Source of the DNA: a virus
Taxonomy: Duplodnaviria; Heunggongvirae; Uroviricota; Caudoviricetes
IMG/VR virus record: IMGVR_UViG_2681813201_000019
Strand: one strand, 5' to 3'
DNA length: 43,972 bases
Shown here: positions 11,213 through 43,272 of the stretch, piece after piece
Position numbering within the stretch: the stretch's first letter is position 1
Layout of the letters: each line of letters opens with the position of its first letter
Program-made: the position numbers and the translations under genes
Notes under the pieces: generated by a model
Database searches by the model: none
Told to the model about the DNA's origin: nothing
What the model saw: the letters and a program-made list of their open reading frames with translations, nothing else

Positions 11213-11534
11213 GAAACCAGAACATGCACACACAAAAAAACCGCTTGCCATGCCTCAATCGGTCAGGTTACATTTCCGCTGCACCTCATAAAACGGGCGC
11301 CGGGATTCTCAACCCGATACAGAGCAAAGCGCATAACCGCGCAAGCGGTTTTTTTGTGCGTACTGTATTGCCACGTCTTTTTCGCGTCAGAATTATGGCG
11401 GGGCGTACGGGGCCGACTTCGGTCGGGCCGGATTCTTTGCTCTCCGGTGTTGAGAACCCTGTACGTCTCGCCACCCCGAGATTCTCAACTCTGGATGGTG
11501 AGTTATTTCTATCACCGAGCAAAGAGGCCACACC

Positions 11535-12209: not shown

Positions 12210-15032
12210 ATGACGGCAGAGTACATCAGGGACTGGCAACAACCGCGCCACGCAGTGGGGCGTGAAGGAACGGGGATCCCCGCTCCTGAATCCGCGCTTT
12301 CCTCCTGGCTGGATGCCTACCGGGTAGAGAACGAGCGCCGCCAGGAAATGGCTGATGCGGCGTTCTCCGCCACGCCGCTGGGCAACCTGATTAATAAAAG
12401 CCTGGACGCACAGGAAAAACAGGACAAAACCATCACACTGGCAGGAGACGCCAGAAAACAGGCACGCGGCGCAGTGGATGAAGCCATGACCTCGCTGCGC
12501 CTGCTGCCGTCCTATCTGCGCGATCCGCTTATTCGCCACCTCTCCTTCCTGCGCAAAAAACAGGAAGCCGATCGCCGGAAAGGCAAAAAGAGCTGGCAGG
12601 CGGAACGCTATGCACGCGGAACCCTGCGCAAAATATTCGAACGTCTGGACCGCACCGATCACCGCTGGCTGACACCGGGTTATCGCTCCCTTGCCGGACG
12701 CGAACGCCTGGACGATTTGCTTTACCTGCCGCAGCTCAACAAACACCAGATACAGACGCTGGCCACCATGACGGCGGCGATGTTCAGCAGCACCTTCGAA
12801 AAACTCTGCGATGGCTTTGGCGCGACTGATGGCGAACTGACCATGGATGTAACGCTGAAGGCGTATCAGATGCTGGCCCGCATGGCGTTACACCTGCACG
12901 CCATGCCTCCACATTATGACGCACTGACAACAGACAAAGACCGGAGGAACGAACCGGACACAGAGCTGCTGCCGGGCGCAATCCTTCGCCTGACCTGTGC
13001 GGAATGGTGGAAACGCAAACTGTGGCTGTTACGTTGCGAGTGGAGAGAAGAACAACTCCGCGCCGCCTGTCTGGTTTCCAGAAAAACATCGCCCTATCTG
13101 AGCCAGGACGCGTTAAGCGAGTTTCGCGCACAGCGCGAGAAAACACGCGATTTCCTGAAAAGTTTCATGCTGGAAAACGAAGACGGGTTCACGATTGATC
13201 TCGAGACAGTGTATTACGCGGGAGTAAGTAACCCGGTTCACCGTAAGGCAGAAATGATGGCCACCATGAAGGGACTGGAACTTCTGGCCGAAGCCCGTGG
13301 CGACAGAGCGGTGTTTCTGACTGTCACCTGCCCGTCAAAATACCACGCAACAACGGAGAACGGTCATCCGAACCCCAAATGGAACGGGGCCACCATGCGC
13401 GACTCCAGCGATTACCTGGTTAACACGTTTTTTGCGGCGGTCCGCAAAAAACTGAACCGCGACGGCCTGCGCTGGTATGGCATCCGCACGGTGGAGCCTC
13501 ACCATGACGGCACCGTGCACTGGCATATGATGGTCTTTGCTCATCCGGAAGAAATCGACAGCATCGTGGCCATCACCCGCGATATTGCCATTCAGGAAGA
13601 CCGCCACGAGCTGGGCAATGATATTACTCCGCGCTTTAAAGTGGAGTATGTCGACGGCTCAAAAGGCACACCAACCAGCTATATCGCGACCTACATCGGG
13701 AAAAACCTGGACAGCCGCGCCGTGGATGGCATCGACCCGAAAACGGGCAAACCACGCGTTGACCACGAAACCGGAAAATCAATGGCCGAGAGCGTGGAGC
13801 GCGCCATCGGTTGGGCACGCCTTCACCGGGTCCGCCAGTTCCAGTTCTTTGGCATCCCCTCCCGTCAGGTGTGGCGTGAACTCCGCCGCCTTGCCAGCCA
13901 GATGGCACGCAACCCGGAAGGCCCGCAACGGCTGAAGGATGACGCAATGGATGCGGTACTCGCTGCCGCTGATGCCGGATGTTTTGCCACCTACATAGAG
14001 AAACAGGGCGGCGTACTTGTTCCACGCAAAGACTACCTGATTCGCACCGCCTACGACCTCGCCGATGAGCTGAACGATTACGGCGAACAGAGTGTACAGA
14101 TTTACGGGATCTGGTCACCACTCATCGGGGAATCCTCCCGTGTGTGCACGCACCCGGATAACTGGAAGCTGGTAAGACGTAAACCGGAACAGGAAGGCAG
14201 CGCCCACGAAAATGGTTTTGACCTTCAGGGCGGCCCTGCCGCCCCTTGGACTCGTGGCAATAACTGTCCCCGTGTACAGGAAACGGACAACAACGGGACA
14301 GAACAGCCGGAAGAACGGCCAGCACCGTGGCCGCAGCTCCCTGACGGCGTTGAAGTGAACGAATGGATGCGCTCACTGAAACGGCACGAACGCCGGGCGC
14401 TGATGCGTTCGCTTCGTGACAAACAGGCAAAAAACAGCAGTGATGAAATGCAGAGCTGGACACAGAGCCGCAAACAGCAGCGGCCTTTGCCTGATAACCA
14501 CGAATTACTCGCTAAAGAATGGCGGGAGTCTGCTGAATCTCTCGGCCTGCATATCGGTGAACAACAGATGCAGCACCTGTTACGGGGCGGCAGTCTGTAC
14601 GTTGACGGCAGCATCATTGCACCGCAGGGGTTTGAAATTGTACGCAAACCGGATACCCGCCCGGACAGCCGAATCACGCAGCTCTGGCAGCGCCTGAGCC
14701 GTAATCACGGCGTAAGCAGCACGGAGATCCGCCATAACCCGGTCGCCAGCTATCTGGCGCAACTGGGGGCATCAGACCCTGAAGCCGCCGCACGCCTGGC
14801 ATCCACACTTCAGCAGGACCAGAACACCATGAAAACACCCGTTACCGTGCTTTCTGACATGCTGCGCGCCATCCGCGACACAGAGCACGCACAGAGAATC
14901 AGTGAAACCACTGAACGCGCCCGCCGCAAAGCAGACCTGCTGCGGGGTGGCCTGACCATTGGAAACAAAAAACAGACAGAAACGGGATTCACAAATCCCG
15001 TAAATGAGCAAAAAACGCGCCGCGATATATGA
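12210..15032 (+). CDS. A: Replication initiation endonuclease, gpA-like (rolling-circle HUH initiator)
   Basis: 940 aa; HUH motif HWHMMVF and tyrosine pair in TSYIATYIGKN typical of the P2 A / phiX174 A superfamily; expected position after the early genes. Confidence 0.85.
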   Translation: MTAEYIRDWQQPRHAVGREGTGIPAPESALSSWLDAYRVENERRQEMADAAFSATPLGNLINKSLDAQEKQDKTITLAGDARKQARGAVDEAMTSLRLLPSYLRDPLIRHLSFLRKKQEADRRKGKKSWQAERYARGTLRKIFERLDRTDHRWLTPGYRSLAGRERLDDLLYLPQLNKHQIQTLATMTAAMFSSTFEKLCDGFGATDGELTMDVTLKAYQMLARMALHLHAMPPHYDALTTDKDRRNEPDTELLPGAILRLTCAEWWKRKLWLLRCEWREEQLRAACLVSRKTSPYLSQDALSEFRAQREKTRDFLKSFMLENEDGFTIDLETVYYAGVSNPVHRKAEMMATMKGLELLAEARGDRAVFLTVTCPSKYHATTENGHPNPKWNGATMRDSSDYLVNTFFAAVRKKLNRDGLRWYGIRTVEPHHDGTVHWHMMVFAHPEEIDSIVAITRDIAIQEDRHELGNDITPRFKVEYVDGSKGTPTSYIATYIGKNLDSRAVDGIDPKTGKPRVDHETGKSMAESVERAIGWARLHRVRQFQFFGIPSRQVWRELRRLASQMARNPEGPQRLKDDAMDAVLAAADAGCFATYIEKQGGVLVPRKDYLIRTAYDLADELNDYGEQSVQIYGIWSPLIGESSRVCTHPDNWKLVRRKPEQEGSAHENGFDLQGGPAAPWTRGNNCPRVQETDNNGTEQPEERPAPWPQLPDGVEVNEWMRSLKRHERRALMRSLRDKQAKNSSDEMQSWTQSRKQQRPLPDNHELLAKEWRESAESLGLHIGEQQMQHLLRGGSLYVDGSIIAPQGFEIVRKPDTRPDSRITQLWQRLSRNHGVSSTEIRHNPVASYLAQLGASDPEAAARLASTLQQDQNTMKTPVTVLSDMLRAIRDTEHAQRISETTERARRKADLLRGGLTIGNKKQTETGFTNPVNEQKTRRDI

Positions 15033-15108
15033 AGCGCGCATAAAACAGGCAAAAACGGGATTTCAGAATCCCGTAAACGATTAATTAATCAACATAAGGA
15101 AAAGCGAC
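14975..15108. promoter_or_regulatory. Two 20-bp palindromes ACGGGATT-N4-AATCCCGT about 70 bp apart, immediately upstream of the parM-like gene (candidate parC/operator)
   Basis: Perfect 8-bp inverted arms with 4-bp spacers at about 14981..15000 and 15053..15072; no T-run, so not typical intrinsic terminators. Confidence 0.4.
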
Positions 15109-16068
15109 ATGAAAATTTGTATCGATGACGGCTCCACCAACATCAAGCTGGCATGGACTGAGAACGGCGAACGCCGCAACGCCATCAGCCCGAACAGCTT
15201 CAAGTCGGAATGGTCTGCGCCGTTCGGTGGCACGCAGCCCGCGAACTACATGCTTGATGGCGTGCGCTATGGTTTTGATCCGGTCAGCGATCGCTTTGTC
15301 CAGACGACCGACACGCAATACCAGTACAGCGATGTGAATGTCATTGCCATTCATCACGCGCTGGTCAAATCAGGCATCACACCACAGGAAGTGGATGTGG
15401 TTGTCACCCTGCCACTGAGCGAATATTTCGACACAAACGCACAGCCGGACATGGCCAACATCAACCGCAAAAAAGCAAACGTCATGCGCCCGGTGGCGTA
15501 CCAGAACGGAAAAGCATTCACTATCCGTAACGTACGGGTTATGCCTGAATCCATTCCGGCTGGTTTTAAAGCACTGGCTGACATGAGTCCGTTTGAATCC
15601 CTGCTGATTGTGGATTTAGGCGGAACCACGCTGGATGTGGCAAAGGTTCAGGGACAACTGGCAGGTATCAGCCAGGTGTTTTGCGATCCACACGTAGGCG
15701 TTTCCCTGATGGCCGATGCCGTACTGTCGGTGATGGCCACTAACGGTATGCGTACCAGTCACCACATCGCCAATACCATTATCGAACATCGCCATGATGA
15801 AGCCTGGCTGCGCCAGCACATCCACAATGACGCGCATTACGACAGCCTGATAGCGGTTATTCGTGAAAAGGAAGAAACACTGAAACAACGCGTGATCCGC
15901 GCGCTGGCGGGTTTTTCGGGTTACGGGCGGGTGATGGTTGTCGGTGGCGGGGCGGAGATTGTGGCACCCGCTATCCGCGAAGCCTGCGGAGTTAATGCGA
16001 CTTTCATCGCGGACGGGGTGCCACAGTTTGCTCTGGTTAATGGGCTGTACGCAATGGACAAGGAGTAA
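15109..16068 (+). CDS. parM: ParM/StbA-like actin-family segregation ATPase
   Basis: 319 aa; N-terminus MKICIDDGSTNIKLAW against R1 ParM MLVFIDDGSTNIKLQW, and similarity continues along the length (YSDVNVIAIHHAL, RRKANVMRPV, LLIVDLGGTTLDV, MVVGGGAE, LVNGLY). Confidence 0.85.
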   Translation: MKICIDDGSTNIKLAWTENGERRNAISPNSFKSEWSAPFGGTQPANYMLDGVRYGFDPVSDRFVQTTDTQYQYSDVNVIAIHHALVKSGITPQEVDVVVTLPLSEYFDTNAQPDMANINRKKANVMRPVAYQNGKAFTIRNVRVMPESIPAGFKALADMSPFESLLIVDLGGTTLDVAKVQGQLAGISQVFCDPHVGVSLMADAVLSVMATNGMRTSHHIANTIIEHRHDEAWLRQHIHNDAHYDSLIAVIREKEETLKQRVIRALAGFSGYGRVMVVGGGAEIVAPAIREACGVNATFIADGVPQFALVNGLYAMDKE

Positions 16069-16072
16069 ACCA

Positions 16073-16384
16073 ATGACGACACCAACCAGACGGATAAGTT
16101 TCTATCTGAAGCCCGCCGCCGTCAAGAACGAAGGCAAAGCATGCGCCTGGCTGGACAGCCTTACACCAGAAGCCCGCAAAAGTGGTCAACGTGTGGCTTT
16201 TCTGGCCGGACTGGCACTTATGAAAATTAATCCGGCAGAGGCTTACCGACTGGCTGCATGGGCTGACGATGAAGCGTTATCCCTGACACAAACCAGGACA
16301 GAACGCCCCGTGTCACAGCCAGCACCAACCGCACAGATAACCAGTCAGATGGCCGGAAATATCCGGGCGTTATTTCCCGAATAA
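16073..16384 (+). CDS. parR: ParR-like centromere-binding protein
   Basis: 103 aa from the internal ATG with AAGGAG Shine-Dalgarno; RRISFYLKP...ACAWLDSL...AFLAGLAL...NIRALFPE parallels R1 ParR (RRTIAFKLNP...VCDTLDSI...AALTAGLAL...ILRSLFPKE). Confidence 0.7.
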   Translation: MTTPTRRISFYLKPAAVKNEGKACAWLDSLTPEARKSGQRVAFLAGLALMKINPAEAYRLAAWADDEALSLTQTRTERPVSQPAPTAQITSQMAGNIRALFPE

Positions 16385-16447
16385 CACAACATCAGGGCGC
16401 ATCCGCCCTGATGACTTTAACCCGGGAACATAAACAAGGGGGACACA

Positions 16448-16780
16448 ATGCAACACATTGACAGAGAAAAAGCGCAGCGACTGATTGAGCGGATGGAAGC
16501 GCTGGCGCAAGAAGAAAATGTCAACATCCAAAAAATAGCTGAATGTGGCCAGATAGTTCTTCGTCGTGAAAAAGACCTCAAACAACTGATGTCTGGCAAA
16601 ACCAGCAAAACATGGGCTTCAGGCGAGGAAACGATTTATTGCAGCTTCTGCAATAAATCCCAGTACGAAGTCACAAAGGTGATTGCTGGACCGTCTGTTT
16701 ACATCTGCAATGAGTGCGTGGATTTGTGCAATGAAATTATCAGGAGAGAAGTGGCAGACAAAAAGGGAAAAAACACATGA
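16448..16780 (+). CDS. ClpX N-terminal zinc-binding-domain (C4 zinc finger) protein, no AAA+ module
   Basis: 110 aa; C-terminal [39 protein letters not shown] nearly matches the ClpX zinc-binding domain ([33 protein letters not shown]); N-terminal half is charged/helical. Confidence 0.75.
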
Positions 16781-17091
16781 ACAGAAAACAAAAACAAGAG
16801 TTGAAATACTTTTTACGTAAAGAAATTGCCAGGCTTGAAGATGCAGAATCACGATCATCAGAAATTCCGTTCGGAATGGATATCAACGACGCCCGTATGC
16901 TCCAGGCATACCGTATAGCTCAGGCTGCACTACAGGCAAAACCGTCAGATGGACTGGTTAGAGCAGTACGTTTCTATGAACTGGTAAAGCGTGAGAATCC
17001 GCCAACCGAAACCGGAGCATGGAAAGACGCTGTTGACTGGGTGCTCAGAGAAGCTTGCCAGACTGTAAACATTGGTATCAAAGGAGAGTGA
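16777..17091 (+). CDS. Hypothetical protein (104 aa)
   Basis: ORF translationally coupled to the ClpX-ZBD gene; ends ...NIGIKGE. Confidence 0.45.
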
Positions 17092-17093
17092 GA

Positions 17094-17585
17094 GTGCAGA
17101 TTTCACCGGTTACTCTTCGTGTTGCGAAGGCATTTATATCCAGACATCACCGACACAATAAACCCCCGGTGGGGCATAAATTCAGCATTGGTCTGAGAAA
17201 TGATGCCGGAGAATTGATAGGTGTGGCGACAGCCGGTCGACCTGTTGCACGACATTTGGATGATGGATTAACGCTTGAAGTAAATCGCACATGTACCACA
17301 GGAGAACGCAACGCTAACAGCGCGCTTTATGGTGCTGTCTGGCGGGCAGCAAAAGCTATGGGTTATCAACGTTGTATTACGTACACCCGGGCAGATGAAT
17401 CAGGAGCATCTCTTCGCGCAGCTGGTTTTGTTCGTGTGAAAGAGCTTCCTCCAAGAAAAAGCTGGGCGGAATCAAGCGTCGCCCTGCGGAGTAAACGCGA
17501 TCCAGTCGGAAACGGTGGTGTTCCTCGTGTGCTCTGGGAAATCAGGAGAATGAGTACCACTGGTATTCGCATCAAAGGAGAGTGA
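17094..17585 (+). CDS. Hypothetical protein, possibly GNAT-fold (GTG start)
   Basis: GTG 7 nt after AAGGAG; C-terminal region ...NANSALYGAVWRAAKAMGYQRCITYTRADESGASLRAAGF weakly resembles an acyl-CoA N-acyltransferase fold; ends ...GIRIKGE. Confidence 0.4.
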   Translation: MQISPVTLRVAKAFISRHHRHNKPPVGHKFSIGLRNDAGELIGVATAGRPVARHLDDGLTLEVNRTCTTGERNANSALYGAVWRAAKAMGYQRCITYTRADESGASLRAAGFVRVKELPPRKSWAESSVALRSKRDPVGNGGVPRVLWEIRRMSTTGIRIKGE

Positions 17586-17586
17586 T

Positions 17587-17850
17587 ATGGCAACTTTGAC
17601 AAAAAAAGAACGGGCATGGTTGAATGAATTACAGGACGTTCTTGATCGCTGCCCATCACCGAAAAAAATTGGTTTTTACACCATTGGCGATAAAAGCATT
17701 TACCTGTATGACCTGCGCCGCATGGATGAAATCATGGAGGCTCTTGATAATCGTTCGTCAATGGATTGGTGTGTTGCTGTTCATGATATGAATGCAGGGT
17801 TTGATGAAAAGATTTTGTTCCCCTCATCAGTTGAAAGCACAGCAGGATAA
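17587..17850 (+). CDS. Hypothetical protein (87 aa)
   Basis: ORF in the same operon. Confidence 0.45.
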   Translation: MATLTKKERAWLNELQDVLDRCPSPKKIGFYTIGDKSIYLYDLRRMDEIMEALDNRSSMDWCVAVHDMNAGFDEKILFPSSVESTAG

Positions 17851-17860
17851 GGACTAACAC

Positions 17861-18121
17861 ATGACAACTTTCACCGACAAAGAACTGATTAAAGAAATCA
17901 AAGAGCGCATAGGCAGCCTGGACGTTCGAGACAATATTGAGCGCCGTGCTTATGAAATTGCACTGGCATCACTGGAAGCAGAGCCAGTAGCATGGATGCA
18001 TGTAAATAACGGCATCGGAATACCAGCAATAACAAGGAGTAAAGAGGTTGCAGAGAGTTGGTTATCAAAAGGCTGGTATGTCCAACCCTTGCATCTAGCC
18101 CAGCCTGCATCAAAGCTATAG
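17861..18121 (+). CDS. Hypothetical protein (86 aa)
   Basis: Last ORF of the cargo operon, followed by a terminator. Confidence 0.45.
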   Translation: MTTFTDKELIKEIKERIGSLDVRDNIERRAYEIALASLEAEPVAWMHVNNGIGIPAITRSKEVAESWLSKGWYVQPLHLAQPASKL

Positions 18122-18130
18122 AAATGAGCC

Positions 18131-18160
18131 AAAACGCCCTCTTCCAGGGCGTTTATTTTA
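18131..18160 (+). terminator. Rho-independent terminator closing the cargo operon
   Basis: Hairpin aaacgccct-cttcc-agggcgttt followed by a T-rich run. Confidence 0.55.
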
Positions 18161-18161
18161 A

Positions 18162-18260
18162 TGCACAATAGTGCACAAATTTGCACAATTTTTTTGAACG
18201 ACTTTTTGCCCTTCCGGCCCCCGTGGCGGCTGGATCCGTCAAGGATCCGTGCGTGCACAA
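18162..18260. repeat. TGCACAA iterons (three copies at 10-bp spacing plus a fourth) and a GGATCCGT tandem pair in the cos-proximal region
   Basis: atGCACAAtagtGCACAAatttGCACAAttttttt at about 18162..18188; gGATCCGTcaaGGATCCGTgcgTGCACAAaaaaa at about 18231..18260. Confidence 0.4.
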
Positions 18261-18612
18261 AAAAACGCGTTTTTTCTGCGCGCAGGTGACGGGGGAACAG
18301 CCCGCGTTTCAGGGGGTAAATAGCGTTCCCTTAACGATGTCGCAGCGACACGACAGAATGGCCGTATTTCTCACGCTGAGCGTGAAAAATACGTGAGGGA
18401 TTCTGATTTGATGGGGTGAAAGGTAAGGCCGTCAAAATCGCACTGAGGCGGCGAGAACATGCAGTCAACGCGGTGGGATTGCGTAAGAGTCTGACCGTCG
18501 ATGGTGGCGATAAACTGGAAGGCGTCGTGAAATTATCTGACTGATACAGGAGCTGGAGAGTCGGGGCATAAATTTTTTATGCCCCGGCGAAGCAGCAGAC
18601 AAGCGAAGCGCG

Positions 18613-19659
18613 TCAGGATGTGGGCTGGATGTCTAACAGTGCGTAAGGGTTAAAGCGGATCACCTCTTCGCCAAGCCAGTCATTGATGTGCTTCATGGCC
18701 TCCATGACGGGCATCAGCTCGTTAATTGCGTAAACTCGCGCGGCCTTCTCCACATCACCAAACGCACTTTTTTCACCCGGCATCGCCCCCATCAGTTGCG
18801 GCGGAACGCGGTGCGCAGCCAGCACATCATCACGGGATGCCGCCTTAACATTCATGAACTCATCCTTTGCGGTGATCTGCTGGAACGGCAAAATTTGCAC
18901 CCCCTCTTTGCCCCCGTTGGGCGCATGAATGAGCACGTTTTTAAACGCACCACCACCACGCGCGCCCTGTAACGTTTCTTTCAGGGAGTCCATGCTTTCG
19001 CGGTTTACCTGCGCTGCACCAATGTAGATGATGCACCCGGCGTGGGAGCCGTTGTCGTAGTACAGTTTTCTGAACATGTCCGCCGAATGAGAAAGGCTGG
19101 CCGAGAGTAATGCGCCAAGATATTCCGGCATGCCGTAGATTTCCTGATTAATATCCGGATTCATCAGATGGCACACTTTGCCAGGGCGAAACTGAAACGC
19201 GTCCTTGCCATCCTGCACATACCACCATGATTCAAGATCGCTTCCGCGTCGCATGTATTTCGCCAGTGCGTGCCGTAATTTAAGCGGTTCGCCGAGCATA
19301 TTGCTTCGAAGCTCAAGGAATGCGTTACCGAACACAAACCAGTCCAGCGCCAGCGCCGAGAAATCCTGCCGGGAAAGCAGCGGGTGCGGAATATAGCAGC
19401 CGAGCAATACATTGCGCTTAAAGTAAAGCGCAGACTGATGCCAGGACGTTTGCCGGGCAGCTCTTGCCAGACCGTACCAGTCTACCGGGGTTTCATACCA
19501 CCGCCCGTTATCAGCACAGTACATATTGTCCAGCAGGTCATGCCCGGTCAGGCGATAAGGACCATCAAATGTGAATGCACTGAGCGATGATTCTTTCCTG
19601 AGCGCATCAGCGAGATCAATGCGTGAACTCATGCGCACTTTTTTATTTTTTCTGCTCAT
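18613..19659 (-). CDS. Q: Portal protein (gpQ)
   Basis: 348 aa, P2 gpQ-like in size and position, adjacent to the large terminase and divergent from O. Confidence 0.85.
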   Translation of the reverse strand: MSRKNKKVRMSSRIDLADALRKESSLSAFTFDGPYRLTGHDLLDNMYCADNGRWYETPVDWYGLARAARQTSWHQSALYFKRNVLLGCYIPHPLLSRQDFSALALDWFVFGNAFLELRSNMLGEPLKLRHALAKYMRRGSDLESWWYVQDGKDAFQFRPGKVCHLMNPDINQEIYGMPEYLGALLSASLSHSADMFRKLYYDNGSHAGCIIYIGAAQVNRESMDSLKETLQGARGGGAFKNVLIHAPNGGKEGVQILPFQQITAKDEFMNVKAASRDDVLAAHRVPPQLMGAMPGEKSAFGDVEKAARVYAINELMPVMEAMKHINDWLGEEVIRFNPYALLDIQPTS

Positions 19660-42901: not shown

Positions 42902-43025
42902 ACAAAAAAACCACCCGAAGGTGGTTTCACGACACTGCTTATTGCTTTGATTTTATTCTTATCTTTCCCATGGTACCCGGAGCGGGACTTGAACCCGCAC
43001 AGCGCGAACGCCGAGGGATTTTAAA
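42902..43025. repeat. att direct repeat, right copy (overlaps the functional leuZ 3' half and its terminator)
   Basis: Identical to 5703..5826 except for one base in the terminator loop. Confidence 0.85.
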
Positions 43026-43057
43026 TCCCTTGTGTCTACCGATTCCACCATCCGGGC
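42971..43057 (-). tRNA. leuZ: tRNA-Leu (anticodon UAA-type)
   Basis: Minus-strand 87-nt sequence gcccggatggtggaatcggtagacacaagggatttaaaatccctcggcgttcgcgctgtgcgggttcaagtcccgctccgggtacca; last gene of the pgsA-glyW-cysT-leuZ cluster. Confidence 0.95.
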
Positions 43058-43069
43058 TCGGGAAGAAAG

Positions 43070-43143
43070 TGGAGGCGCGTTCCGGAGTCGAACCGGACTA
43101 GACGGATTTGCAATCCGCTACATAACCGCTTTGTTAACGCGCC
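43070..43143 (-). tRNA. cysT: tRNA-Cys (GCA)
   Basis: Minus-strand 74 nt ggcgcgttaacaaagcggttatgtagcggattgcaaatccgtctagtccggttcgactccggaacgcgcctcca. Confidence 0.95.
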
Positions 43144-43196
43144 AAATTCTTCAGGCCTTTCAGCCAGACATCCGCTGACGCCGATGTCTTTTAAAC

Positions 43197-43272
<76 letters not shown>

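Follow-up and report, generated by a model that had tools for sequence, protein, structure and literature searches.

Two consecutive genes of this phage end with the same four residues and the same 15 nt. Is this repeat a private duplication that marks the arrival of one gene, or does it belong to something that other phages share, and what does the gene between the two copies encode? We addressed these questions in the whole stretch of 43,972 bp that was analyzed (the window), in which both genes lie within a region of known variability:

15033..18612, unstranded: gpA-gpQ variable hotspot of P2-like phages, between gene A and the portal gene

Replication gene A (12210-15032) was identified by Pfam (Phage_GPA, E 1.7e-130), and the portal gene (18613-19659, minus strand) is named after the annotations of P88 and PhiR44_2. 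GC content is lower in the hotspot interval (41-52% vs 52-60%). The gpA-gpQ hotspot of P2-like phages has been described (Rousset et al., 2022, PMC9122126), and the interval resembles it in occupying the same locus, from replication gene A to the portal gene next to cos, and in having a content that varies among P88-like prophages that are otherwise 97-99% identical. The cargo is different, however: here it consists of small genes of the lambdoid exo-xis type with no recognized defense system, and none of the five small proteins matched a PADLOC defense model. The route of exchange with unrelated phages was left open in a 2026 paper (PMC13586616). The features that concern us are as follows:

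16777..17091, plus strand: 104-aa gene from the ORF list, with an N-terminus that is Ea22-like by PHROG only
17071..17091, plus strand: junction copy 1, the short linker variant ATTGGTATCAAAGGAGAGTGA, holding the end codons and stop of the 104-aa gene
17094..17585, plus strand: XF1762-family gene, 163 aa, with a GTG start, ending in GIRIKGE and the stop
17559..17585, plus strand: junction copy 2, the full lambda-ea22-type linker ACT GGT ATT CGC ATC AAA GGA GAG TGA
17587..17850, plus strand: 87-aa gene, phrog_1714, to which PHROG assigns no function; a separately shuffled cassette
17861..18121, plus strand: 86-aa gene, Ea22-like by PHROG only (phrog_5117, 660, 60)
18132..18154, plus strand: terminator-like hairpin that closes the rightward gene string and is conserved in P88

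The hairpin directly precedes the cos-proximal noncoding stretch and the portal gene. The 104-aa protein matched phrog_660, 26213, and 250, the first of which also matched the 86-aa protein (E 1.5e-27 and 7.6e-22, respectively). The Pfam Ead_Ea22 domain (PF13935) was found in neither protein at E ≤ 0.1, and the 104-aa protein had no match of any kind in Pfam (E ≤ 0.1) or NCBIfam. The last eight codons of the 86-aa gene (LAQPASKL and the stop) form the end of a fused 112-aa gene in phage P88.

The initial annotation had described the repeat correctly. ATCAAAGGAGAGTGA occurs in the window as two exact copies (17077-17091 and 17571-17585, both on the plus strand; 43,972 bp scanned), both of which encode IKGE and the stop, and the gene lengths of 104 and 163 aa agree with the ORF list. 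No other site with up to two mismatches to ATCAAAGGAGAGTGA was found in the 43,972-bp window, and shuffled sequences contained a mean of 0.04 matches, with two or more matches in 0 of 100 shuffles. The repeat is longer than the 15 nt first noted: ATTGGTAT and CAAAGGAGAGTGA, which stand on either side of a gap at 17071-17091, align with ACTGGTATTCGCATCAAAGGAGAGTGA at 17559-17585, so that the two copies are identical at 20 of 21 positions and differ by a 6-nt indel (TCGCAT). An ungapped comparison gave 78% identity over 36 nt. In both copies, the TGA stop lies 1-2 nt and an AAGGAG sequence 6-7 nt 5' of the next start codon. Copy 1 places this ribosome-binding site 7 nt 5' of the XF1762 start (GTG, 17094), and copy 2, which carries the XF1762 stop, places it 6 nt 5' of the next gene's ATG (17587).

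A single gene flanked by direct repeats could be the product of a dedicated site-specific mover acting at the junction, such as an integron-like recombinase, a transposase that duplicates its target, or a homing endonuclease, and one HNH endonuclease gene (L123) does carry the linker tail. We regard such a mover as very improbable. Neither terminal inverted repeats nor a site able to form a hairpin was found at the cassette ends, recombinase and transposase genes are absent among the ORFs of the interval, the repeats vary in length from 15 to 32 nt, and the HNH gene stands alone and showed no clear repeat at its flanks. The folding energy of the two junctions is ordinary (z +1.4 and -1.6), no stable RNA or DNA hairpin was found at the junction, and no Rfam family was found there. 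In the PeSL cassettes of T4-type phages and the attC cassettes of integrons, single genes are bracketed by a short repeated regulatory sequence that allows them to be shuffled. The arrangement described here differs from both in having no promoter or stem-loop, no integrase, and no attC-like inverted repeat, and in that the repeat is a translation junction inside coding sequence.

Beyond the window, the junction proved to be widespread. Its consensus in E. coli is GCC GCT GGC ATT CGC ATC AAA GGA GAG TGA followed by one base and ATG; this is the 3' end of lambda ea22, and it reads in frame as A-A-G-I-R-I-K-G-E and the stop of the upstream gene. Junction copy 2 matches the 3' end of lambda ea22 over the final 24 of 27 bases but for one (GGT vs lambda GGC). 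Of 5426 complete E. coli genomes, 2877 contain the 34-nt consensus, with 5798 matches in all and up to 10 in one genome. At least 120 viral contigs contain the exact 15-mer, with the 12 nt upstream and the ATG downstream conserved too, and among the 15-mer occurrences listed the conserved linker is about 27-33 nt long. It is found in lambda-like, P22-like, and P2-like phages and at places on plasmid records. Separately, a 21-mer scan of the genome collection was mostly uninformative for taxonomic range, and its matches suggest lambda DNA contamination of unrelated assemblies in most cases.

The linker ends many Ead/Ea22-like genes that have unrelated C-terminal domains, and unrelated genes come after it. 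The upstream proteins among the matches listed fall into 13 groups by C-terminal domain, mostly Ead/Ea22-like, three of the groups being singletons that lack the extended motif and may be chance matches. The 126 occurrences of the 15-mer among the matches listed comprise 21 upstream clusters and 31 downstream clusters, joined in 69 different combinations. When 79 Ea22-like genes were chosen by their N-terminus only, about 38 were found to end with the junction, and the tail AGIRIKGE with its stop also occurs on genes that are not Ea22, namely XF1762 and the HNH endonuclease. The 104-aa protein ends in VNIGIKGE; its C-terminal domain and tail are common to lambdoid Ead/Ea22-like proteins, and in other phages the same C-terminal domain stands behind an Ea22 N-terminus that begins MSEIN (U3). 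On the downstream side, the 87-aa gene is preceded in other phages by at least nine different upstream gene types. Variants of the linker in Salmonella and Enterobacter also terminate many different Ea22-like genes, which are followed by different genes. Judged from these sequences, the two 15-mers of the window are copies of a widespread gene-end linker and not a private duplication.

The linker could be conserved for the peptide that it encodes. A '+GE' (K/R-G-E) C-terminal motif has been reported for four Ea22 proteins, with 'significance unknown' (Dydecka et al., 2020, PMC7093339), and the two genes in the window end in KGE like lambda Ea22, with the same residues in the same place. In addition, other genera keep the pattern AAGI-x-[IVL]-...-GE before the stop while their DNA differs (GIRIKGE, GIQVIEGE, GIKLQIEGE, GINLETGGE, and GITLVVGGE), which counts against a pure DNA-level constraint and favors the view that the tail A-A-G-I-R-I-K-G-E acts as a C-terminal interaction or degradation signal, with DNA identity being secondary. 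We nevertheless consider a peptide function unlikely to be the explanation. The junction codons of the E. coli Ea22-like set are nearly invariant, and synonymous types of change are no more numerous than nonsynonymous ones, which indicates that the conservation is at the DNA level. AAGGAG is kept where the peptide has changed (GIKE in Kapi1, and KESA, each followed by the stop), the 'GE' codons GGA GAG, GGG GAG, and GGT GAG are the ribosome-binding site read in frame, and the tail of XF1762 is predicted to be disordered and is absent from homologs in other genera. The K-G-E at the ribosome-binding site is encoded by AAAGGAGAG, and AAGGGCGAA is a recoding in which K-G-E is kept. We therefore attribute the '+GE' ending of Ea22 proteins to a ribosome-binding site and stop that are read in frame; what was reported as a peptide motif is here the reading of AAA GGA GAG TGA, within a longer DNA element that also ends genes other than Ea22.

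Many BLAST alignments of the window to other phages begin or end at the junctions. The most direct comparison, which the initial annotation had proposed, is with a relative that lacks the 163-aa gene, and it is provided by the P88-like prophage L062 (97% identity in GpA, 98% in ParM, and 97% in the portal protein). In L062, the 104-type C-terminal domain is followed by one junction and then by the 87-aa gene, and the two BLAST segments share 21 nt there, so this single junction is the predicted empty site. The proposal that a cassette was exchanged by recombination at a conserved junction is thus supported by the widespread linker, by L062, and by the combinatorial flanks. The comparative data can be read equally well as insertion or as deletion, and the direction cannot be told from them. 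Homology to P88 ends within junction copy 1, after 17087, and the P88 break at 17087/17088 is joined to 18096 with no homology on the right side, indicating that at least that rearrangement was illegitimate.

The neighbors of XF1762 also vary. Upstream genes are of the P88 type, the Kapi1 type, or carry one of two Ea22 C-terminal domains (L258 and L259), and three different genes lie downstream across phages. A conserved downstream partner was considered and rejected, as the overlapping genes of 149 aa (L125) and 163 aa (L129) are not homologous. In four other genera, too, XF1762 lies between direct repeats, each time of the local variant of the linker (Salmonella, 32 nt, 31/32 identical; Klebsiella, 28 nt, 26/28; Enterobacter, 31/31; Cronobacter, 16/16). 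No flanking repeat was found at XF1762 genes without the tail, and the neighbors of these homologs are unrelated.

In five genera the flanking repeats lie a comparable distance apart (482-500 nt), and the copies are almost identical within a genome and different between genera. Such a pattern could have arisen if a single ancient insertion of XF1762 behind an Ea22-like gene duplicated the gene end and gene conversion then kept the copies alike. This history is quite unlikely, however. Within a host group, many other genes terminate in that group's local linker variant, the same XF1762 protein is found behind two Ea22 C-terminal domains (L258 and L259), the two copies in the window are different variants from the pool (one short and one long), and both the tail and the repeat are missing from many XF1762 genes.

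The initial annotation had further suggested that the 104-aa and 163-aa proteins form a two-gene module. Their genes follow each other closely, with 2 nt between stop and start, and XF1762 often lies directly 3' of an Ead/Ea22-like gene; GNAT-fold toxins exist, and the GNAT protein Mom is toxic if overexpressed (10.1101/861617). These observations would suit a GNAT-type toxin-antitoxin pair or another obligate two-gene module, but the suggestion did not survive the comparison with other phages, and we now judge it highly unlikely. The upstream partner varies while XF1762 is constant, the tail-less homologs have unrelated neighbors, neither Pfam nor PADLOC gave a match for the 104-aa protein, and P88 has the 104-aa gene type without XF1762. 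A search for a pair of the TacT/AtaT type found no conserved cognate antitoxin gene beside XF1762. We conclude that the recurrent adjacency of XF1762 to Ead/Ea22-like genes is due to the shared linker.

The 163-aa protein belongs to NCBIfam NF045478 (XF1762_fam; E 1e-60, 203.7 bits vs a cutoff of 50), with residues 3-136 aligned to positions 2-130 of the 143 in the profile, and an identical gene is labeled XF1762 family protein in RefSeq. Proteins of the family from E. coli and Mycobacterium prophages share 55% identity. In the AF2 model (pLDDT 82), residues 1-151 adopt a Mom-like GNAT fold, with the mixed beta-sheet and the beta4-alpha3 and beta5-alpha4 core of the GNAT superfamily. The protein's own fold ends at RVLWEIR. 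Residues ~152-163 (RMSTTGIRIKGE) are the linker translated in frame, homologs from other genera stop right after RVLWEIR(R) and have no tail, and residues 156-163 are predicted to be disordered (pLDDT below 50). The earlier description of a GNAT-like C-terminal region was therefore right about the fold but not about its place, as the fold spans residues 1-151 and the last ~12 residues are linker. Because the last ~12 codons of XF1762 are the linker, the gene is bracketed by two linker copies.

The closest solved structure is that of phage Mu Mom (PDB 8bv8), which was the best structural match by two methods. Mom is a Gly-tRNA-dependent DNA adenine modifier in which R111 and S124 are essential, the Arg being specific to Mom among GNATs (PMC13219725; 10.1101/861617), and an HTH-like insertion between beta6 and beta7 (~residues 175-209) is also essential for activity (PMC13219725). 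It was the fold comparison alone that reached Mom: a search of the sequences of solved structures with an XF1762 alignment profile gave no match at E ≤ 1, hhalign gave a weak match to the single Mom sequence (probability 2%) and E 1e-3 (probability 20%) with a 28-sequence Mom alignment, and the Pfam Mom profile (PF25680) scored below its gathering threshold (22.1 vs 27.1 bits, profile positions 3-126 of 202). Some close XF1762 homologs have a precomputed weak match to PF25680. The weak hhalign alignment (E 1e-3) pairs H19, N64-R65, N73, and S76 of XF1762 with Mom H58, N110-R111, N121, and S124, and R65 is invariant and S76 at least 90% conserved in the XF1762 alignment. XF1762 thus resembles Mom in its GNAT fold, in being phage borne, and in keeping these equivalents.

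The two proteins also differ. Mom has 231-241 aa and XF1762 163 aa, and in XF1762 the HTH-like insertion is missing: beta6 and beta7 are joined by no more than 26 residues (119-144), modeled with low confidence, which form a conserved loop (W124, S128, D136, G139, and G141). The C-terminal half of Mom lies outside the hhalign alignment; for Asp149, Arg151, and Tyr159, a comparison by eye of RADESGA with FADERCG would keep D/E but not R151, no Tyr was seen by eye in XF1762 helix alpha4, and Mom R151 and Y159 are without evident equivalents. Unlike Mom, XF1762 has no com-like regulator, and it sits among early/accessory genes rather than late genes. XF1762 is most likely an acyl or aminoacyl transferase, and its target would be a nucleic acid or something else that is highly conserved. 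The term 'XF1762' was not mentioned in the literature searched, and searches for 'Mom-like' returned only papers on mitochondria or annotation notes.

Phage mosaicism has been debated as the outcome either of targeted recombination at short boundaries or of random illegitimate joining followed by selection. The arrangement at the junction clearly exemplifies a recognized mode of phage genome shuffling, and we think it probable that the shared gene-end linker is a swap point for genes and that XF1762 is one Mom-like GNAT cassette exchanged there. The linker would start translation of the next gene through its AAGGAG ribosome-binding site. The near-identical ~27-33 nt present in many phages would also provide a patch of homology at which Red, RecT, Erf, or host RecA could promote a crossover, so that flanking genes would be swapped, inserted, or deleted with their reading frames and translation signals intact. 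Of the two linkers that bracket XF1762, one would serve its own translation and the other that of the next gene, and this bracketing may let XF1762 move among lambda-like, P22-like, and P2-like phages; in the window, the gene occupies the gpA-gpQ hotspot of a prophage that is P88-like. The minimal homology for Red or RecA recombination is ~30 bp (PMC2327257). The exact 15-mer falls short of the ~30 bp usually quoted for efficient recombination, and so does junction copy 1, given its 6-nt indel, which counts against a swap at the linker.

In the account summarized in PMC3233612, a boundary-sequence model of phage mosaicism is established (Susskind and Botstein, 1978; Clark et al., 2001, on HK620). 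As described there, the lambdoid boundary sequences are, like the linker, short conserved sequences at gene boundaries with unrelated flanking genes and mosaic breakpoints, and homologous recombination at the short patch was proposed for exchange. The linker differs from them in three respects: it lies inside the upstream coding end, producing a common peptide tail; it is the ribosome-binding site of the next gene, with variants specific to host groups; and it connects lambda-like, P22-like, and P2-like families and places on plasmid records. About half of complete E. coli genomes contain the linker, its flanks are combinatorial, a relative offers an empty site, and its variants are specific to host groups, which makes this a rare case in which the boundary-recombination model can be put to a direct test.

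More tentatively, and with considerable doubt, we suggest that the linker may be a translation-coupled docking site for single-gene cargo across phage families and that XF1762 may be a minimal Mom-type modifier of nucleic acid that uses an aminoacyl-tRNA or another acyl donor. A docking site of this kind would have variants specific to host groups, with traffic among the exo-xis and nin regions of lambda-like phages, P22-like phages, and the gpA-gpQ locus. If true, this would give a concrete mechanism for the turnover of hotspots, and XF1762 would represent a further branch of tRNA-dependent modification in phages, the second and by far the more widespread. As a small, widely conserved relative of Mom with key catalytic residues, XF1762 is a promising candidate for a previously undescribed activity that modifies nucleic acids, and the linker offers a concrete route by which accessory genes may pass between unrelated phage families and into the gpA-gpQ hotspot of P2-like phages.

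The window is a P88-like prophage (Peduoviridae, P2-like), and a BLAST search found E. coli O145 RM11626-C1 to be 100% identical over the query. The genes considered here occupy the gene A-to-portal interval, which has a lower GC content than the core genes and which Rousset et al. (PMC9122126) have described as the variable hotspot of P2-like phages. From gene A to the hairpin the features follow one another on the + strand, and the portal gene is then encoded on the - strand.

Features of the gene A-to-portal interval
12210-15032, +, replication gene A
15109-16068, +, ParM
16448-16780, +, ClpX-zinc-finger-only protein
16777-17091, +, 104-aa ORF ending ...NIGIKGE*, closed by the 15-mer ATCAAAGGAGAGTGA
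17094 (GTG) to 17585, +, 163-aa ORF (XF1762) ending ...GIRIKGE*, closed by the same 15-mer
17587-17850, +, 87-aa gene
17861-18121, +, 86-aa gene
18132-18154, +, terminator-like hairpin
18613-19659, -, portal gene (named from the P88 and PhiR44_2 annotations)

The initial annotation had reported that two consecutive genes end with the same 15 nt, and this was borne out: the window contains exactly two copies (17077-17091 and 17571-17585), whereas shuffled sequence gave a mean of 0.04 matches and never reached two. If a 6-nt indel is allowed, the likeness extends upstream, with ATTGGTAT------CAAAGGAGAGTGA in copy 1 (17071-17091) corresponding to ACTGGTATTCGCATCAAAGGAGAGTGA in copy 2 (17559-17585). 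In both copies, AAGGAG is 6-7 nt and the stop codon 1-2 nt from the next start codon. We found no Rfam family for the junction and no unusual RNA folding in it, no terminal inverted repeats at the cassette, and no recombinase in the gene A-portal interval.

The exact 15-mer is present at at least 120 loci in viral contigs. Comparison of the 126 occurrences with sufficient flank revealed that the 12 nt upstream and the downstream ATG are likewise conserved, giving the linker consensus GCC GCT GGC ATT CGC ATC AAA GGA GAG TGA, t or g, ATG. Beyond this linker the flanks are unrelated, falling into 21 upstream and 31 downstream clusters in 69 combinations. A few singletons lack the extended motif and are probably chance matches, as some are to be expected for a 15-mer in a collection that large. 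The upstream proteins are mostly Ead/Ea22-like, sharing an N-terminus (MSEINSQALREAAEKA...) and a coiled coil; their C-terminal domains are unrelated, and the tail (A)GIRIKGE* is constant. The junction is therefore a linker shared among phages and no duplication peculiar to the window. Lambda ea22 itself has this linker as its 3' end, and the linker's tail is also found on XF1762 and one HNH endonuclease.

Of 5426 complete E. coli genomes, 2877 contain a 34-nt consensus; its 5798 sites include 281 on plasmids, and no genome has more than 10. A scan of one genome per species with a 21-mer from the lambda ea22 end matched Escherichia and Shimwellia, as well as Streptomyces, Prevotella, Streptococcus, Bacillus, Pseudomonas, and others (L210-L248). 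The matches in unrelated taxa lie on contigs of ~48.5 kb, or of ~1 kb with low coverage, and look like phage lambda DNA contaminating the assemblies.

The HNH-type endonuclease gene (locus L123, 1075-1608, -; 177 aa) has the full E. coli tail ...GVAGIRIKGE* and is the sole other non-Ea22 gene found with it; the gene preceding it ends in the loosely similar CGCAAAGGAGGCAAACAGTGA. In lambda (L249, 560-660, -), the ea22 linker (GAGTGAGATCGG...) is not followed by a gene start, and ea8.5 begins ~190 nt further on, as if a coupled downstream start had been lost; the related locus L097 has GAGTGAtATG and then similar sequence.

We sampled 79 Ea22-like genes by N-terminal similarity alone, and ~38 of them end in the junction or a near variant. 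Codons in these junctions are almost invariant, and among the rare changes synonymous types are not more numerous than non-synonymous types. Variants that change the peptide and retain AAGGAG exist, such as GIKE* before XF1762 in phage Kapi1. Dydecka et al. reported K/R-G-E as the ending of all Ea22 proteins, with unknown significance (PMC7093339). The simplest reading of AAA GGA GAG TGA is that it is the ribosome-binding site and stop codon read in frame. The linker probably drives translation of the next gene. An identical early end, ...AKIKTQRAA*, was seen in 16 of the 79 sampled genes (L130-L209).

Among P88-like phages whose replication, ParM, and portal genes are 97-99% identical, the content of the gene A-portal interval differs. 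In P88 it comprises nothing more than the zinc-finger gene and the 104-aa gene in a 112-aa version; XF1762 and the 87-aa gene are added in PhiR44_2 and L011, and the 86-aa gene as well in the window. L062, a P88-like prophage, carries a different Ea22-like gene with the same C-terminal domain, a single junction, and then directly the 87-aa gene. It is the empty site that the initial annotation proposed to look for, a relative without the 163-aa segment; the two segments of its BLAST alignment share 21 nt at the junction. In other phages the 87-aa gene follows at least nine different genes and XF1762 precedes three, and BLAST alignments to lambdoid, P22-like, and large (~100-kb) phage records start or stop at both junctions. 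The proposal of recombination at a conserved junction is thus supported by the empty site and the combinatorial flanks, and it is generalized by repeats in other genera (see below). Short conserved boundary sequences that target phage recombination are an established idea (PMC3233612), and the full linker is about as long as the minimal homology quoted for Red or RecA recombination (~30 bp; PMC2327257). Recombination probably takes place within the linker.

The break relative to P88 is of another kind. Window position 17087 is joined in frame to 18096, and the right side of the break is without homology. The 112-aa gene of P88 (L001, 2830-3168) consists of the 104-aa gene as far as IKG(D), followed in frame by the final 8 codons of the 86-aa gene (LAQPASKL*). 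P88 looks as if 17088-18095 had been deleted, and this rearrangement was illegitimate. A second mosaic break lies within XF1762 (window 17094-17123 against Kapi1 [L003] 1971-2000): the P88-type and Kapi1-type alleles differ in their first 10 codons, and lambdoid and P22-like DNA matches set in only after the first ~30 nt of the gene (query position 677).

Other features of the prophage were also recorded. GpA has 940 aa, with the Pfam GPA domain at residues 179-503 only, and a full-length ParM/StbA actin-like partition protein is encoded directly 3' of gene A in this P2-like prophage. The zinc-finger protein (110 aa) joins an N-terminal part of unknown type to a ClpX C4 zinc finger (Pfam zf-C4_ClpX, E 2.8e-18) and lacks an ATPase domain; its gene is found in P88 and PhiR44_2 and is missing from L062, and a 51%-identical version stands 3' of the linker at lambdoid loci L009 and L076. 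Upstream of the replication gene, isrK (11281-11355, +, 58 bits) and C4 antisense RNA (11391-11478, +, 78.5 bits), both above the Rfam gathering score, form a P1/P7-type immunity RNA pair (11281-11478), which in this case belongs to a P2-like prophage. Three clustered tRNA genes (42974-43272, -; Rfam tRNA, 54-66 bits) lie near the window end.

In four other genera, a local linker variant occurs as direct repeats on both sides of tailed XF1762 genes.

Repeats flanking tailed XF1762 genes (length, matching positions, sequence)
Salmonella (L254): 32 nt, 31/32, CGCCG[T/C]TGGCATCCAGGTTATCGAAGGAGAAG
Klebsiella (L251): 28 nt, 26/28
Enterobacter (L257): 31 nt, 31/31, TGGCATCAAATTGCAGATCGAGGGGGAGTGA
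Cronobacter (L258, L259): 16 nt, 16/16, TTGAGACAGGGGGTGA

Every variant begins with GGCATC and closes with a purine-rich, ribosome-binding-site-like stretch and a stop codon. Those of Salmonella and Enterobacter also terminate many different Ea22-like genes with different genes downstream, so the phage pool of each host group has a linker version of its own. At L258 and L259, one and the same XF1762 protein is encoded after Ea22-like genes whose C-domains differ. No flanking repeat was found at tail-less XF1762 genes (Pantoea L129, metagenome L125), and XF1762 homologs of other genera terminate right after ...RVLWEIR(R).

The 163-aa protein matches NCBIfam XF1762_fam (203.7 bits, cutoff 50) and phrog_1384, "Mom-like DNA modification protein"; its score against Pfam Mom is below threshold. 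The GNAT-like call made from the sequence was correct but understated: an AF2 model (pLDDT 82) shows a GNAT fold over residues 1-151 and a disordered tail, and profile-profile alignment to the Mom family alignment (E 1e-3) equates H19, N64-R65, N73, and S76 with Mom H58, N110-R111, N121, and S124. In Mom, R111 and S124 are essential, and R111 is kept in Mom homologs and not in GNATs at large (PMC13219725; 10.1101/861617). Mom moves glycine from Gly-tRNA to DNA adenine and requires an HTH-like insertion (~residues 175-209) (PMC13219725). XF1762 has only a conserved 26-residue loop in its place and no evident R151 or Y159, and we therefore class it not as a Mom but as a sister family. Its enzymatic activity is putative.

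XF1762 homologs form >5000 clusters, and 153 of 5426 E. coli genomes carry the gene. Proteins of Mycobacterium, Burkholderia, Synechococcus, and Microbacterium phages are 50-60% identical to XF1762, which suggests that its substrate is very conserved. A Mycobacterium abscessus prophage "acetyltransferase" (H130-H135) is 55% identical over 91% of E. coli XF1762, an unusually high cross-phylum conservation for a small phage accessory protein. In the Salmonella prophage, XF1762 lies two genes upstream of a 664-aa DNA methylase (C5), the gene between encoding an 86-aa protein (phrog "DNA methyltransferase"; L254 5491-7742 and 9183-10154), and an AcrVA2-like gene is nearby. In the Klebsiella prophage (L251 5796-7381), it adjoins the Kiwa defence system genes KwaA and KwaB.

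A two-gene module with the 104-aa protein, as had been suggested, is not supported: the neighbors on both sides of XF1762 vary while XF1762 persists, and neither Pfam nor PADLOC gave a match for the 104-aa protein. XF1762 is often beside Ead/Ea22-like genes because the linker is common to both. The sequence facts, the distributions, the empty site, and the GNAT fold are direct results of the analysis; crossing over in the linker, its role in translating the next gene, and the function of the enzyme are inferred. The linker is a well-documented further example of the already known phage boundary sequences, and the gene that it brackets here belongs to an annotated but uncharacterized Mom-related family.
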